From an uncultured Gammaproteobacteria bacterium (GTDB lineage Bacteria > Patescibacteriota > Patescibacteriia > Magasanikbacterales > UBA922), in contig OZ246405.1 in the NCBI GenBank assembly GCA_965231005.1, forward strand, positions 39,204 through 103,203: 64,000 nt of DNA. The letters are read 5' to 3'. Under the pieces are notes generated by a model. It was given only the letters and a program-made list of their open reading frames with translations. It was not told the origin of the DNA and ran no database searches. Below are positions 5,463 through 52,651 of the stretch, piece after piece. A program made the position numbers and the translations under genes. Numbering within the stretch: position 1 is the stretch's first letter; each line of letters begins with the position of its first letter.

Positions 5463-5512
5463 AAAAGCCTTTATGGCTTTTTTAGCATTTATGGCTTTTA
5501 AGGCCTTTTTAA
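5463..5512. repeat. 9-bp periodic array AAAGCCTTT ATGGCTTTT TTAGCATTT ATGGCTTTT AAGGCCTTT
   Basis: Five tandem 9-mers with consensus A(A/T)GGC(C/T)TTT directly after the stop of the DUF4012 gene. Confidence 0.6.
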
Positions 5513-8055
5513 TTTTTTTCCATAACAACACCAAGCACCTGGTCTTCATGAAGCGTTGTAGTAAACAGTGCCCCATTTACAGCAAGCTGTATGTCACCCC
5601 GAGATCGCCAAACTGGCTGCCACCCATCTGGATACACAATTTGGGAATGAAATGCACTATTGATTCCTGACTGTTTTTGAATAAACAAACTATACCTGCT
5701 TCCATGCCGCTGAGCATCTCCAAAAAATATGTCTCTCCACTTTTCTTGTGTTGTTAACTCTGCTTCTTCTTGCTCCATTTTTACTTGCATTGGAAGTTTA
5801 TAAACAAATGTCACCTCACTTGTTTCTCCAGGAAGAACACTCATCCAATTTCCAAACGTTGTTTTGCCAAATTGTTCTGACACACGCGTACCACTTTGTG
5901 CATGGATTCCTTTTTCTTTTTCAAAATCAGCCAAATGTGGATCTTGTCTATACCATTCTTCTGGAACTTTAAAGACATCTTCTGGCGGATAGGTAAATCC
6001 ATTTGCATCAAGAAGTTCAGACCCTTTTGGAACATATACACGAATATAATCTATATTTGGTCCACCATAAAATTGTTCCCCTGCCACACCAGTGTGTGTT
6101 CGTTTTATATTCACTGTATTGATGATTGATCCATCGTCCATAACTTGTGCTTGGTGTGTAATATCTTGTTCAATTTTTGCATCTGACTTTTGACCACCAA
6201 TATTTGTATTCACAACCATAAGATAATCTTGTGTTGGTGCTGTTTCAACAATTTCACCTGTCCATCCAAAAGATCGAATTTCTTTTTGTAACTCATTATC
6301 AATAAACGATGCTTGTATTTCTTTTTGTTGTGCAGCAGTATGTATTTCTGACAAGAGCCGAATTGCAGAAACAGCATCAATTTCTTTCATTCCTTCAAGG
6401 AGTTGTTCAAGCATGCTTGCAACAACTGCTTTTGGTTTATTTTCTTCTTTATCATAATTCAATTCAACTTCTTCTTGAACTGTCTGAAGTACATTGTCTG
6501 CATCGACGAGCAAATCAAATTCTTCATTTTCCATAGGACCAACAACACGAAGGAATCGTTCTAAAACTGATGCATTAATTGCAATGACTCCATCGACGGT
6601 TGCTCCTCTACCATGCTGATAAAACCATGCCATTTTTTCTGCCGAAGCAGCAAAATCTGGAAACCAATTACTATCTTGAAATTCCCAACGTCCATTTACT
6701 ACTTGTAATGGCTCTGGTGGTTCTACAAATACATTGAGTTGCCCTTTGATATCGTATGTGCCTCCTCCTGGGACTTCAATATTCATAATTTTTCCTTTTT
6801 GAACATCAACAACAGCAAAGCTTCCTAAAAATCCACCAGTTGCACGAAGTTCATGATTGTTCTGGAACATAACAAGGTATCGCTTTAATCCGTCAGCACC
6901 GAAAACCTTATTAATAACATCGACAAGGTCTGCTAAGTCACCCATGTCACTAATAAACGCAGCAAATAATAATTTAAACTCTTCAAATGCATCCTGATAT
7001 TCTGTAGGAAGAGAAGATGATTCAACATGTTGGAGATCTTCAAGTGCAAGTCGGTATTGTGGGACAGAAGCTTGTAAATGATCTTGAATAATATTGAATC
7101 GATCGGTCATATTCAAATCATCATCTTCACTTGCAGCACTCACGCCTTTTACTAAATAGGTATTACCCAATGCCAAATGATGGCCAGCACTGAGTACATG
7201 TTGTCGAGACCGAACTTGTTTTCCAATAACAGGTAGCATACTTGCTACAAAGCCTAATATTTGATGTTCTTGATCGACAAAAGACTGCGCTTCATTGAAT
7301 GATCCAAGTGCACTATTCAAGTCAAATTGTGCTTGGGCAATATTTGCCTGAAGAGCAGCGAGTGTTGAAGACTGAAGAGAAAGAAACGCATTGGTGCTTT
7401 GCTCTACCAGTTCAGCACTGTCTTGTCGAACCTTTTTATAATATCCAAATGCAGGAAATGGTAGGCTTCCAATCAACACAAGAATAACAAAAGAGGCAAT
7501 AAAACGTCGAACAGTAAATCCTTGGACAAACTGTTGTGCTCGGTTGTCTACGGCATTGAATGCACCATTCCATTTTTGTTTTACAGATGAGGCAACAGTG
7601 CGATGAAATGTTATTCGACGTCGTGCTTTTTTTACAACAATACGATCGTCTCTTTGTAAAATTGGTTGAGATACCACTCCTTGTGTTTGTTGTTTTCTAA
7701 CCATATTTCGAAGCTGAACAACCTCTTGCTCAAGACGTTCGATTTTTGTTTTCTGATTTGCTTTGCGAACCATGCTTGCCAAATCAATTCCCTCTCGGAT
7801 TGGAGCAACTTTTTCATATGCTTCTCGAAATGCTTTTACGCGCTCTGGCGCGACCTTCTTTTCTGGGCGCAAATCAACAATATGTGGTGATTGTTTTTTA
7901 TCGTGGCAAACATGAACAACGACAGATGGTTTTGTCGTTCTTTTTTTCCTCTTTTTGACATGAGGAGTACTATTGAGCGATGCTCGTTTACATGTCCGTT
8001 TTGTGTGTCCAGGACGTCTGCAAACTGAGCATTTTCGCTGCTTTTTTTCTGCCAT
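5509..8055 (-). CDS. DUF4012 domain protein with N-terminal zinc-ribbon-like CxxC...C and one TM
   Basis: 848 aa; HNHELRATGGFLGSFAVVDV block characteristic of DUF4012; CSVCRRPGHTKRTC near the N-terminus; adjacent to the GT4 cluster. Confidence 0.6.
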   Translation of the reverse strand: MAEKKQRKCSVCRRPGHTKRTCKRASLNSTPHVKKRKKRTTKPSVVVHVCHDKKQSPHIVDLRPEKKVAPERVKAFREAYEKVAPIREGIDLASMVRKANQKTKIERLEQEVVQLRNMVRKQQTQGVVSQPILQRDDRIVVKKARRRITFHRTVASSVKQKWNGAFNAVDNRAQQFVQGFTVRRFIASFVILVLIGSLPFPAFGYYKKVRQDSAELVEQSTNAFLSLQSSTLAALQANIAQAQFDLNSALGSFNEAQSFVDQEHQILGFVASMLPVIGKQVRSRQHVLSAGHHLALGNTYLVKGVSAASEDDDLNMTDRFNIIQDHLQASVPQYRLALEDLQHVESSSLPTEYQDAFEEFKLLFAAFISDMGDLADLVDVINKVFGADGLKRYLVMFQNNHELRATGGFLGSFAVVDVQKGKIMNIEVPGGGTYDIKGQLNVFVEPPEPLQVVNGRWEFQDSNWFPDFAASAEKMAWFYQHGRGATVDGVIAINASVLERFLRVVGPMENEEFDLLVDADNVLQTVQEEVELNYDKEENKPKAVVASMLEQLLEGMKEIDAVSAIRLLSEIHTAAQQKEIQASFIDNELQKEIRSFGWTGEIVETAPTQDYLMVVNTNIGGQKSDAKIEQDITHQAQVMDDGSIINTVNIKRTHTGVAGEQFYGGPNIDYIRVYVPKGSELLDANGFTYPPEDVFKVPEEWYRQDPHLADFEKEKGIHAQSGTRVSEQFGKTTFGNWMSVLPGETSEVTFVYKLPMQVKMEQEEAELTTQEKWRDIFFGDAQRHGSRYSLFIQKQSGINSAFHSQIVYPDGWQPVWRSRGDIQLAVNGALFTTTLHEDQVLGVVMEKN

Positions 8056-8099
8056 GTTCTTCGCTATTTATAGATATATTATACCATGAATCTGTAATA

Positions 8100-8290
8100 A
8101 ATAGCAGAAGAATTGGGTATAAACCGACTGCATTCAACACACCTCTCATTCTGTCATTGCGAGGAATGAAGCGAAAGCGTAATGACGAAGCAATCTAGTG
8201 GGAACTGCTAGAAAAATTCCAATGAGATTGCTTCGTCGCCCTACTGCCTATCGGCAAGTAGGGCTTCTCGCAATGACAGGAATCTTTTAA
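8100..8290. other. nested-palindrome structured element (possible cis-regulatory RNA or REP-like DNA element) in the leader of the DUF4012 gene
   Basis: Perfect 13-bp inverted pairs CTGTCATTGCGAG/CTCGCAATGACAG and GACGAAGCAATCT/AGATTGCTTCGTC, plus an internal hairpin GCCCTACTTGCC-GATA-GGCAGTAGGGC. Locally GC-rich. Confidence 0.4.
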
Positions 8291-8322
8291 TAAAAAAACC
8301 TCCCCCTGCTAAAGGGGAGGTA
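8290..8322 (-). terminator. intrinsic terminator of the GT4 gene (CCTCCCC-TTTAGCA-GGGGGAGG stem then T7 on the minus strand)
   Basis: The reverse complement reads cctcccctttagcagggggaggttttttt. Confidence 0.55.
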
Positions 8323-8341
8323 GCCGAAGGCTGGAGGGGGT

Positions 8342-9466
8342 TTACTTTTTTACGAGAAACTCCGAATAAACATCCAACGTCTCCTCTGCCATCCTTTTCC
8401 ATGAATATCTTTTCAACTCTTCTACACCTTTTTGTTTTAGTTCAAAACGAATATCCTCGTCTACAAGCGCACGTTCAATTGCAGAAGCAAATTGTTCATG
8501 GTCTTCTGGATCAGCATACAGTGCAGCTTCACCTAAAATTTCTGGGAGGCATGTTCTGTTTGAAGAAACAACAGGAACGCCATGACTCATCGCTTCAAGC
8601 GGTGGCAATCCAAATCCTTCGTACAAACTTGGAAATGTATAAAGTGTTGCATGTTTATAAAGAGTTAACAATTCATCATCACTAACAAAATCCGTATAAA
8701 CAACATTGTTACATTGTTTTATTTCTTCACTTTTTAAAAGTTTTTCATAAAAATAATTTTTCTTTCCAACGAGCACAAGTTGATATTCATCTTCAAATGT
8801 TTTTTCAATAATTTTCCACGCATTTAACAAACCTTTTAAATTCTTGTGTGGAAACGCCACTCCAACATACAACACATACGGCTTGGCAATATTAAACTTT
8901 TTCAAAACAGAATTATTTGTATCTTGTGTCTTATGATTTAAGTAGGCTTCATATGTGACACTCATCTTATCAAGAGAAACATTAAGTGTTTTGTGCACAT
9001 CTTGTCTTGTAAACTCACTTGGCGTAAAAATATGTTTTGCTTTTTTTACTGCATGAGCAAGCACTACTTTGTATGCAATATATTTGAATGCATAACGAAA
9101 CCACCCAAGCGTGCTTGCTTCACGAGTTGGATAATGCATGAGCAACAAATCATGAACAGTGACAACAAATGGATCATTATAAAACAGAGGTACGTTCCAG
9201 TGTGGAAAATGCATCAAATCTATTTGTTCTTTTTTGAGAATGCGTAAAAATCTGAATTGTTCTTCCCATCCATACCAATGTATGTCTGCAAGAACTTTTC
9301 GAATCTTTGGATGTTCTGGGACAAGCTCCCAATTATCTTTTTTTAAAAATAAAACATACTCATCATCACCAGACAGTGTAATAAGATGATCAATGAGTTG
9401 TTGCGTATACCGACCCAATCCCCCACATTGAGGACCAAGCATTCGTGCGTCTATGCCGACTCTCAT
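8342..9466 (-). CDS. glycosyltransferase family 4
   Basis: EGFGLPPLEAMSHGVPVVSS motif of GT4/RfaB-like enzymes. Confidence 0.8.
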   Translation of the reverse strand: MRVGIDARMLGPQCGGLGRYTQQLIDHLITLSGDDEYVLFLKKDNWELVPEHPKIRKVLADIHWYGWEEQFRFLRILKKEQIDLMHFPHWNVPLFYNDPFVVTVHDLLLMHYPTREASTLGWFRYAFKYIAYKVVLAHAVKKAKHIFTPSEFTRQDVHKTLNVSLDKMSVTYEAYLNHKTQDTNNSVLKKFNIAKPYVLYVGVAFPHKNLKGLLNAWKIIEKTFEDEYQLVLVGKKNYFYEKLLKSEEIKQCNNVVYTDFVSDDELLTLYKHATLYTFPSLYEGFGLPPLEAMSHGVPVVSSNRTCLPEILGEAALYADPEDHEQFASAIERALVDEDIRFELKQKGVEELKRYSWKRMAEETLDVYSEFLVKK

Positions 9467-17239: not shown

Positions 17240-17328
17240 TGCTCAGGAGAGGACTTGAACCTCCACAGGAAAAAATTCCCACAAGGCCCTCAACCTTGCG
17301 CGCCTGCCTGCCGGCAGGCAGGTCTACC
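17240..17328 (-). pseudogene. 3' portion of a degenerate tRNA-Leu(GAG) paralog (D-loop GGTAGAC to acceptor end), interrupted by the 20-bp GC palindrome
   Basis: Minus strand reads GGTAGAC-[CCTGCCTGCCGGCAGGCAGG]-CGCGC AAGG TTGAGGG CCTTG ... GGAGGTTCAAGTCCTCTCC TGAGCA. The T-arm and anticodon loop are identical to the intact tRNA-Leu at 18199-18285. Confidence 0.5.
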
Positions 17329-17574
17329 AAATCTGTTTAATAAAGTTATTTTTATCCATTCCTTCCCTGATCCAGACTTTAGATATTTCTCCCGTTTTCT
17401 AGCTTCAATTCTTGTCGAATATTTTTCGTAATATATCAAAAGAAAAGGTCTGTAAAAACGTGTCACTCTTTCTTTTCCACGCTCATGTTCTAAAACCCGT
17501 CGCTCAAGGTCATTCGTTAGACCAACATAAATATAATTCTTTTGAAGACTTTTTAATACATACACATGGTACAT
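17290..17574 (-). CDS. GIY-YIG nuclease family protein
   Basis: YVYVLKS...YIYVGLTNDLERRVLEH GIY-YIG motif. The last ~8 codons (PACRQAGAQG) are encoded by the GC palindrome and tRNA fragment. Confidence 0.7.
   Translation of the reverse strand: MYHVYVLKSLQKNYIYVGLTNDLERRVLEHERGKERVTRFYRPFLLIYYEKYSTRIEARKREKYLKSGSGKEWIKITLLNRFGRPACRQAGAQG
17303..17322. repeat. perfect 20-bp palindrome CCTGCCTGCCGGCAGGCAGG (copy 1)
   Basis: Exact self-complementary 20-mer. Identical copies at 18312-18331 and 52500-52519. Confidence 0.8.
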
Positions 17575-18197: not shown

Positions 18198-18198
18198 G

Positions 18199-18285
18199 TG
18201 CGCAGGAGAGGACTTGAACCTCCACCCTGTATAACCAGGACCAGGCCCTCAACCTGGCGCGTCTACCGATTCCGCCACCTGCGCG
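18199..18285 (-). tRNA. tRNA-Leu (anticodon GAG), class II with long variable arm
   Basis: The minus strand reads GCGCAGG TG GCGG AATCGGTAGA CGCG CCAGG TTGAGGG CCTGG TCCTGGTTATACAGGGT GGAGG TTCAAGT CCTCT CCTGCGC A. All four stems pair. No encoded CCA. Confidence 0.85.
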
Positions 18286-18306
18286 TGTTTTGAATATTTT
18301 TTATTT

Positions 18307-18384
18307 TTAAATGTTGCGCGCCTGCCTGCCGGCAGGCAGGTCTACCAATGGAGTTTACCTGCCGGAGCTTTAGCGTAGGCAGGC
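18307..18384 (-). pseudogene. 5' portion of the degenerate tRNA-Leu paralog (acceptor GCTCAGG through the D-arm), containing two GC-palindrome-type insertions
   Basis: The minus strand reads GCTCAGG TG GC[CTGCCTACGCTAAAGCTCCGGCAGG]TAAACTCCATT GGTAGAC[CCTGCCTGCCGGCAGGCAGG]CGCGC. Acceptor GCTCAGG is complementary to CCTGAGC at 17241-17247. Confidence 0.45.
18312..18331. repeat. perfect 20-bp palindrome CCTGCCTGCCGGCAGGCAGG (copy 2); part of the 31-bp direct repeat GGTAGAC-palindrome-CGCGC shared with 17298-17328
   Basis: Exact match. Confidence 0.8.
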
Positions 18385-52404: not shown

Positions 52405-52651
52405 TCAGAAATTAGAAATTGGAAATTAGGGATCAAACTAGGAACAACTATATAGTACACAGATTACCAAGATAAAAACAGATTTACCAGGATCTGATCC
52501 CTGCCTGCCGGCAGGCAGGTGTGAAAATCCTGGTCGATCCTGGAAATCTGTGTACTATTTAATCGAAACTAGATAATATATAATTCGAAAATTTAAACTA
52601 AAACAACCTAATTTACTTCCCCAATTTCTAGTTTCTAATTTTTAATTTCCT
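52405..52651. mobile_element. compound nested palindromic element: outer arms are TAGTTTCC-type 8-mer arrays, inner arms CAGATTTACCAGGATC/GATCCTGGAAATCTG, centre is the perfect GC palindrome CCTGCCTGCCGGCAGGCAGG (52500-52519)
   Basis: Left arm CAGAAATTAGAAATTGGAAATTAGGGATC; right arm CCCAATTTCTAGTTTCTAATTTTTAATTTCC; additional pair GTACACAGAT/ATCTGTGTAC. Confidence 0.55.

Follow-up and report, generated by a model that had tools for sequence, protein, structure and literature searches.

We analyzed a structured element at positions 8151-8279 of a 64,000-nucleotide (nt) stretch of contig OZ246405.1 (hereafter the window), where it lies in the spacer between a GT4 gene and a DUF4012 gene. The element occupies 129 nt of both strands and is an inverted pair of two hairpin units of the REP (repetitive extragenic palindrome) or SRM (Ssn-related motif) type, with their tags outermost. 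We consider it likely that it is a gene-less inverted pair of dispersed, CGTC/TGTC-tagged hairpin repeats of the Ssn type, similar to the NTS/dRS3 and SRM repeats. The evidence that carries this reading is the anatomy of the repeat unit and the way it is conserved, the prevalence of tags-outward pairs among copies in many phyla, and the presence of small GIY-YIG nuclease genes bracketed by units of the same family.

Anatomy and conservation of the repeat unit

Two nested stems frame the element. The outer stem joins CTGTCATTGCGAG (8151-8163) to CTCGCAATGACAG (8267-8279), and the inner stem joins GACGAAGCAATCT (8184-8196) to AGATTGCTTCGTC (8225-8237; all in plus-strand coordinates). Both are complementary at 13 of 13 positions, as the original prediction had drawn them, and the inner stem can be extended to 21 nt at 86%. 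A third hairpin, which had been quoted from the minus strand, is also present inside the outer stem (8238-8264), but its arms are unequal (12 and 11 nt) and form 11 pairs with one bulged T. A small fourth hairpin, GC-GAAA-GC, occupies 8171-8178. The structured part is shorter than the ~170 nt first proposed. Its predicted fold energy as RNA is -71.6 kcal/mol for the minus strand (z = -8.1) and -72.6 kcal/mol for the plus strand (z = -10.1), and as DNA -39.2 kcal/mol (z = -9.9); the native value was reached by none of 200 shuffled sequences. The enrichment in G+C that had been noticed earlier is real and modest: 0.42-0.48 across 8100-8350, compared with 0.34-0.36 at 8000-8149 and mostly 0.23-0.35 further to the right, inside the GT4 gene.

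Judged by its sequence, the repeat unit is the half and not the long nested fold. Each half is about 45-55 nt long and reads YGTC-ATTGC-GAG-(variable tip)-CGA-A-GCAAT-C. In it, the tag (YGTC) is unpaired, the foot (ATTGC/GCAAT) has 5 bp, GAG and CGA form a module capable of tandem G.A pairs, the tip is a variable hairpin, and the C that follows the foot is unpaired. Unit A (8152-8198, plus strand) consists of the tag T-GTC, the foot half ATTGC, GAG, the tip, CGA-A, the foot half GCAAT, C and the tail TAG; its tip, GAATGA-AGCGAAAGCG-TAATGA, carries the GC-GAAA-GC hairpin, and positions 8153-8195 match GTCATTGCGAG...CGAAGCAATC exactly. Unit B (8223-8278, minus strand) is built from the same parts (T-GTC tag, ATTGC, GAG, tip, CGA-A, GCAAT, C), with TCA as its tail and the tip AA-GCCCTACTTGCC-GATA-GGCAGTAGGGC-GA, which forms the hairpin at 8238-8264. 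Its repeat words were matched at 8226-8277 of the minus strand, and unit B folded alone as DNA gives -13.4 kcal/mol (z = -3.8). The two units are separated by a 30-nt spacer (8196-8225) whose ends pair and lengthen the inner stem. Both tips are unusually long, which is why a "third hairpin" had been seen in the earlier reading.

Across the family, the middle piece of the unit ranges from 0 to 30 nt and is wholly different in sequence between copies, yet nearly all tips, which measure 3-30 nt, are self-complementary, and the tip is often bounded by GAR...YGA. The foot covaries: in a search on the 5' half alone, with the 3' half unconstrained, ATTGC 5' halves paired with GCAAT at a ratio of 166:1, and ATCGC 5' halves with GCGAT at 12:1. 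In mixed pairs (for example L253, L282 and L318; L numbers are our handles for individual loci), a foot change in one half breaks the long-range stems and keeps that half's own hairpin. The most conserved positions of the unit are its unpaired flanks, the tag and the 3' C. Among 64 distinct units in which these positions had not been fixed by the search, the tag bases G, T and C were found in 63, 64 and 63 units, respectively, and the C after the foot in all 64, compared with only 56 for the first foot base. In a set of 355 units, GTC is preceded by C in 53% and by T in 42%, and by T in both window units, which carry TGTC...GCAATC. The tail starts with C (fixed by the search in this set, and present in 64 of 64 units where it was free), followed by C (53%) or T (44%) and then by A (41%) or C (46%). 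The window tails read CTA and CTC.

No second copy of the pair was found in the window with up to two mismatches allowed per anchor word, and no tRNA or tmRNA lies near the element. The Rfam comparison that had been suggested found no family above noise: only generic hairpin and microRNA matches were returned for the window region (E ≤ 10), for ten repeat-rich loci (gathering score) and for a typical pair (E ≤ 1). Published text searched with DNA and RNA words of the repeat yielded only primers and small interfering RNAs. The GA-rich junctions prompted us to consider hammerhead, kink-turn and box C/D motifs, which were rejected on inspection of the sequence, as their spacing and conserved bases do not fit. 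A sigma-70 or sigma-54 promoter inside the unit was also rejected; the hexamer spacing is wrong and a scan found none.

Spread and arrangement of the repeat family

The pattern GTCATTGCGAG-N(0-30)-CGAAGCAATC, which contains 21 core bases, occurs in at least 120 stretches of a viral contig collection and in at least 120 stretches of a one-genome-per-species collection, the latter distributed over more than 12 phyla. Hosts among the matches listed are Alpha-, Gamma- and Deltaproteobacteria, Chloroflexota, Bacteroidota, Cyanobacteria, Melainabacteria, Patescibacteria, Planctomycetota, Zixibacteria, Latescibacterota, Ignavibacteria, Firmicutes and Helicobacter. The commonest form of the repeat is GTCATTGCGAG-CGAAG-CGAAGCAATC, usually followed by a variable spacer and the reverse complement, and the unit can be written degenerately as YGTCATTGCGAG...CGNNGCRATC. 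A fitting 3' half lies within 70 nt of 166 of the 220 distinct matches to the 14-mer GTCATTGCGAGGAG, so that the two words belong together and do not co-occur by chance. The original prediction had allowed for a lineage-specific accident, with no other copies and no covariation. We found hundreds of copies elsewhere, together with covariation, and both concern a DNA repeat unit rather than the nested fold as it had been drawn.

The family occupies at least 40 places on a 1.76-Mb Novosphingobium replicon, and a 13-kb phage contig carries seven units; the 64-kb window has one pair. In cultured collections, a typical pair was found in few cultured phages (Helicobacter canis prophage-like records) and in some alphaproteobacterial megaplasmids, and a BLAST search of a plasmid collection with the window element itself gave only a weak Calothrix match. 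A metagenome scan for units with the outer bases of tip B returned 74 loci, none of which shares the same tip, and for that reason a recent burst of the exact window copy is not demonstrable. Clustering of the neighboring genes around 240 repeat loci brought out only phage structural genes and ABC transporters; it missed the GIY-YIG nuclease described below because the nuclease gene is rare. The repeat family is also, we presume, the source of many spurious "hypothetical proteins" in databases.

Paired units are predominantly inverted with their tags outward (188 pairs), compared with 15 pairs in the opposite, tags-inward arrangement and 26 direct pairs. Single halves are common outside pairs, and tandem head-to-tail arrays were observed at three loci (L046, 2695-2818; L020, 28-101; L130, 1372-1506), with periods of 33, 43 and ~50 nt. 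The repeat adjoins unrelated genes in many phyla and takes both orientations relative to them: among single units located within 60 nt after a stop codon in viral contigs, 26 were sense and 29 antisense. Four tailed-phage contigs (L015, L003, L036 and L051) have one unit in many of the short gaps between structural genes, in a single orientation per contig. The seven units of L015 are all antisense to the genes, and those of L003, L036 and L051 are in sense, just before the ribosome-binding site.

Occupied and empty versions of the same site could be compared in two cases. A unit precedes the capsid gene of L003 and is missing from the related contigs L036, L119 and L001, and a pair in L008 (3134-3222) is missing from the related L066 and L093. 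At the L008 site the alignable stretch of L066 and L093 is shorter and coding-like, and the pair may have inserted into a gene there, as the Rickettsia palindromic elements do. Neither the window copy nor any of 70 listed copies is flanked by a target-site duplication. In one Patescibacteria contig (L171, 556-1840), two complete repeat pairs directly enclose an insertion sequence that has 24-nt terminal inverted repeats of its own and carries a Mutator/IS256-like transposase gene; its ends abut the outer stems of the pairs.

Relation to Ssn nucleases and CGTC-tagged repeats

SsnA is a small single-domain GIY-YIG nuclease whose target is the 28-nt NTS, CGTCATTCCCGCGMAVGCGGGAATCYRG, an extended Neisseria repeat (Chenal et al., Nat Commun 2025, PMC11893778). 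It binds and cuts single-stranded DNA only, and in one orientation; within the NTS, the C after the palindrome is key for binding and the three bases upstream are key for cleavage, while the loop is dispensable (PMC11893778). Genes for SsnA homologues, defined by a blastp cutoff of E < 1e-10, are often bracketed across bacteria by hairpin repeats of their own, the SRMs, in the order repeat-gene-repeat (PMC11893778).

The repeat family described here has much the same design. Like NTS and SRM, it is an oriented hairpin in which a (C/T)GTC tag stands on the 5' side, the foot begins with AT and the palindrome is directly followed by C, and the AATCYRG end of those repeats is matched by the end of unit A, AATCTAG. 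Its tip is free to vary, its copies are many and often arranged as inverted pairs, and it brackets single-domain GIY-YIG genes of ~90-105 aa. The GTC tag and the 3' C, both nearly invariant in the family, and the freely varying tips make sense as a one-for-one match to the binding and cleavage determinants of SsnA. Unlike the perfect 8-9-bp palindrome of NTS and SRM, the family has a 5-bp foot, a bulged A, GAG/CGA and a tip hairpin of up to 30 nt. It is also abundant in phage contigs and Patescibacteria, which are not discussed in the part of the SsnA report that is drawn on here (PMC11893778).

We searched all open frames of the fetched repeat loci for GIY-YIG genes. In a Planctomycetota metagenome-assembled genome (L187) and in L281, a gene of ~100 aa with a PF01541 domain fills the spacer of an outward-tagged unit pair, and on a viral contig found from the protein side (L532) the GIY-YIG gene is flanked by seven units of the family. 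Over their full length, the proteins of L187 and L532 share 44% identity with a GIY-YIG protein of Neisseria gonorrhoeae, the SsnA orthologue (pairwise E = 2e-26 and 6e-26), and tblastn of the L187 protein against the plasmid collection reached two N. gonorrhoeae chromosomes at E = 1e-16. These records, the source of the SsnA orthologue, are 2.17-Mb chromosomes filed as plasmids in PLSDB (NZ_CP119140.1 and NZ_CP119142.1). The gonococcal gene is flanked by NTS copies, and in its product (M-QPAVY6...LY17IG...RE64) residues Y6, Y17 and E64 are those mutated in the SsnA study (PMC11893778).

Homologues from Planktothrix and Spirosoma are flanked by sister repeats that share the GAG...CGA module. 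On Planktothrix agardhii plasmid p1 (L546, 18350-19613), the Ssn-like GIY-YIG gene has an MmeI-type restriction-modification gene on one side and DISARM drmA on the other, and is flanked by several copies of the sister repeat TGTCATTCTGAG...CGAAGAATC. Two other loci were rejected as cases of a nuclease gene flanked by the family itself: the flanks are a sister NTS-like repeat in L192 and a different repeat of its own in L280. A scan for gene-sized gaps between units with a loose, two-mismatch pattern gave too many false positives in GC-rich DNA.

The tag places the family in one of the two superfamilies, GTAG-tagged and CGTC-tagged, into which REPs have been split (Di Nocera, De Gregorio & Rocco, BMC Genomics 2013, PMC3733652). 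Repeats of the CGTC class, which include Neisseria dRS3 and Rickettsia RPE-4 and RPE-6, have a CGTC tag that is often TGTC and sometimes CCTC, a stem that starts with A-T and T-A, and a short CCA-like tail. They form mostly one kind of inverted dimer, the other kind being rare and direct dimers negligible, they have no associated transposase, and the peptides encoded by intragenic dimers reveal a tags-outward order (PMC3733652). The family described here likewise has a YGTC tag, a stem starting with A-T and T-A, an unpaired tail starting with C, mainly tags-outward inverted dimers and no transposase beside its copies; these are mostly intergenic, between co-directional or convergent genes, and occasionally intragenic. 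It differs from the four families of that class, which have 8-9-bp stems and 4-5-nt loops, in its stem of 5 bp, bulged A, GAG/CGA and a middle of 0-30 nt, and it was found in more than 12 phyla plus phage contigs, compared with the five phyla reported there (PMC3733652). Its sequence is not in the text or supplements of that paper, Figure 2 excluded.

The association of the family with GIY-YIG genes suggests that an Ssn-type enzyme binds and cuts it. In a pair of inverted units with tags outward, each DNA strand carries one forward unit. Most likely, the unit would fold whenever its DNA became single-stranded, as in replication, DNA uptake or the entry of phage DNA, and an Ssn-family endonuclease, small and with a single GIY-YIG domain, would bind it. 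Binding would depend on the C that follows the foot and cleavage on the GTC tag, leaving a nick beside the hairpin. A nuclease gene bracketed by two units would represent the autonomous form, and gene-less pairs its miniature derivatives. A cognate enzyme may be encoded in the genome from which the window comes.

The locus, competing explanations and significance

The two genes that border the element are both on the minus strand, the GT4 gene (8342-9466) upstream and the DUF4012 gene (5509-8055, starting at 8055) downstream. The intrinsic terminator of the GT4 gene (8298-8321, minus strand), a 10-bp stem followed by TTTTTTT, lies directly upstream of the element on the gene strand and is not part of the repeat. 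A predicted extended -10 promoter of the DUF4012 gene, TGGTATAAT, lies downstream of the element at 8078-8086 (minus strand). An extended -10 box, TGnTATAAT or TGGTATACT, is located ~20-30 nt before the start codon at all five DUF4012 loci compared (the window, L245, L321, L322 and L323), and TG-TATAAT/TATACT is invariant in the five aligned orthologous spacers. The sequence TTTATACCCARTT, further upstream of the box, is common to the window and L245. In the window, the box leaves the DUF4012 gene a 5' untranslated region (UTR) of about 16 nt. With the promoter box downstream and the terminator upstream, the element therefore lies between the two and outside the 5' UTR. The original prediction was correct in placing it between the GT4 terminator (8321-8298) and the DUF4012 start (8055), but its description as part of the DUF4012 "leader" does not hold, as the promoter box (8086-8078) is downstream of the element.

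The comparison of orthologous regions that had been proposed was carried out on four GT4-DUF4012 spacers from relatives with the same gene order and 50-59% protein identity, and the element was present in none of them. These spacers are 80-153 nt long, compared with 286 nt in the window. The pair is probably an insertion specific to this lineage, placed between the terminator of the GT4 gene and the promoter of the DUF4012 gene, and a gene-specific regulatory role at this locus is probably absent.

It might still be that the repeat has been co-opted here as a transcription barrier or RNA-stability element, supplementing the GT4 terminator and shielding the DUF4012 promoter from read-through. 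The element sits right after the terminator and before the promoter, and units of the family are often found within 60 nt of stop codons. REPs elsewhere act as 3'-end elements, most repeats of the CGTC class lie directly after stop codons (PMC3733652), and the REPs of E. coli have been termed dual 3'UTR regulators in a 2026 preprint. However, a canonical terminator already stands upstream of the element, the relatives manage without it, and no T-run follows it on the gene strand. We judge co-option unlikely.

The REP-type candidate of the original prediction was borne out: the element is an inverted pair of widespread hairpin repeat units. Another possibility is a REPIN-type element that depends for its mobility on a RAYT, the REP-associated tyrosine transposase in the HUH family of IS200/IS605. 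The general anatomy is that of REPINs (Bertels & Rainey 2011; Ton-Hoang 2012): hairpin units that have an unpaired 5' tag form inverted doublets and with them a larger hairpin, singletons and clusters occur as well, target-site duplications are absent, one trans-acting enzyme gene is bracketed by units, and action on single-stranded DNA is presumed. The tag, however, is YGTC rather than GTAG, and the gene bracketed by the family encodes a GIY-YIG nuclease rather than an HUH tyrosine transposase. CGTC repeats have no adjoining tyrosine transposase (PMC3733652), and phmmer found no homologue of E. coli RayT at E ≤ 10 in 25,966 open frames from ~530 loci, a single-sequence query of limited sensitivity. 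Mobilization by a RAYT is, in our estimate, very improbable.

Still harder to sustain is a cis-regulatory RNA, either a riboswitch or a protein-binding leader, in which the nested stems would gate transcription or translation from the DUF4012 5' UTR. In its favor are the very stable fold and the position of the element, ahead of the DUF4012 start codon on the coding strand. Yet the conserved TGnTATAAT box falls between the element and the ATG, an intrinsic terminator directly precedes the element, four orthologous leaders lack it, and copies stand beside unrelated genes of many phyla in both orientations. Conserved stems and flanks with free tips are the reverse of a ligand pocket, and Rfam holds no match. 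These findings largely refute a riboswitch or leader, to which we assign almost no probability, and a small RNA, another candidate of the original prediction, was rejected on the same grounds (promoter position, orthologues, unrelated neighbors and Rfam). Equally remote is descent from a DDE insertion sequence, as a miniature inverted-repeat transposable element that has GTCATTGCGAG for its terminal inverted repeat: the terminal repeats, the short length and the transposase gene between two copies in L171 would suit it, but target-site duplications are absent at the window copy and others, the L171 insertion sequence has different terminal repeats of its own and merely lies between two complete pairs, single units and tandem arrays exist, and the interior of the unit is conserved, not its ends alone.

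Several observations weigh against reading the element as a gene-less pair of Ssn-type repeats. The four orthologous loci are distant (50-59% protein identity), which leaves room for loss of the element there, and the 64-kb window contains a single unit pair. According to nearest-neighbor models, isolated units would not be stable (z is about 0 for typical units and -0.9 for unit A); in single strands the nested fold (-39 kcal/mol) is far more stable than the unit hairpins, and it buries the GTC tag in the outer stem. The SRM pattern HGTCWYN(0-2)YYVSBRHN(0-5)WNVSBRGN(0-2)RNCYNB matches none of 461 distinct units, including both window units, whereas the NTS control does match; published SRM counts therefore do not cover the family. 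Strict repeat-gene-repeat cases number only three among roughly 430 repeat-bearing loci. The sole GIY-YIG gene in the window (17290-17574, minus strand; 94 aa, a single PF01541 domain, E = 3e-15), 9 kb from the element, encodes a distant relative, which is 38% identical across 64 aa to the SsnA orthologue of N. gonorrhoeae and lacks the C-terminal NPxWxDL region. Another palindrome, 20 nt long, and tRNA-Leu sequences accompany this gene. The product of the gene is at most a possible trans-acting partner of the element.

The surroundings of the window GIY-YIG gene have a layout of their own. Within 17240-17574, the gene ends with GGTAGA, followed by the 20-nt palindrome CCTGCCTGCCGGCAGGCAGG (17303-17322) and a 5'-truncated tRNA-Leu-like copy. 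The palindrome recurs, between GGTAGA and the CGCGC of the tRNA-Leu D-arm, just upstream of an intact tRNA-Leu(gag) at 18198-18284 (region 18198-18340), and a third copy is located at 52500-52519. Homologues on other Patescibacteria contigs (L533, L543 and L544) show the same order of partial tRNA copy, palindrome, GIY-YIG gene and intact tRNA. The gene and its palindrome look like a nuclease element that lives in tRNA-Leu genes. On a metagenome contig (L296), the tip of the partner unit of a repeat pair consists of CCTGCCTGCCGGCAGGCAGG as well.

At this locus, the analysis removes a false lead, in that the DUF4012 cell-envelope gene is not preceded by a candidate riboswitch. More broadly, a repeat scattered in abundance through the genomes and phage contigs of many phyla is built like an Ssn target, brackets Ssn-like genes and is missed by the published search pattern. 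Patescibacteria are thought to depend on DNA uptake. We offer, tentatively and as something we doubt more than we believe, a further interpretation in which the family is a distinct, horizontally spreading selfish element composed of a hairpin and a GIY-YIG nuclease. The gene, located in the spacer of an inverted unit pair, would give rise to single units and to pairs without a gene in more than 12 phyla, carried there by phages, and in Patescibacteria the repeats and the nuclease would govern which incoming single-stranded DNA recombines. If this were true, the near-identical 21-base core would reflect one enzyme specificity moving between hosts, not ancient inheritance. If the element is indeed an Ssn-type repeat pair, the family would provide substrate and enzyme sequences ready to be tested together, from which the tools for single-stranded DNA could gain a new cutting specificity, and the Ssn/SRM system would reach Patescibacteria, Planctomycetota and phages.

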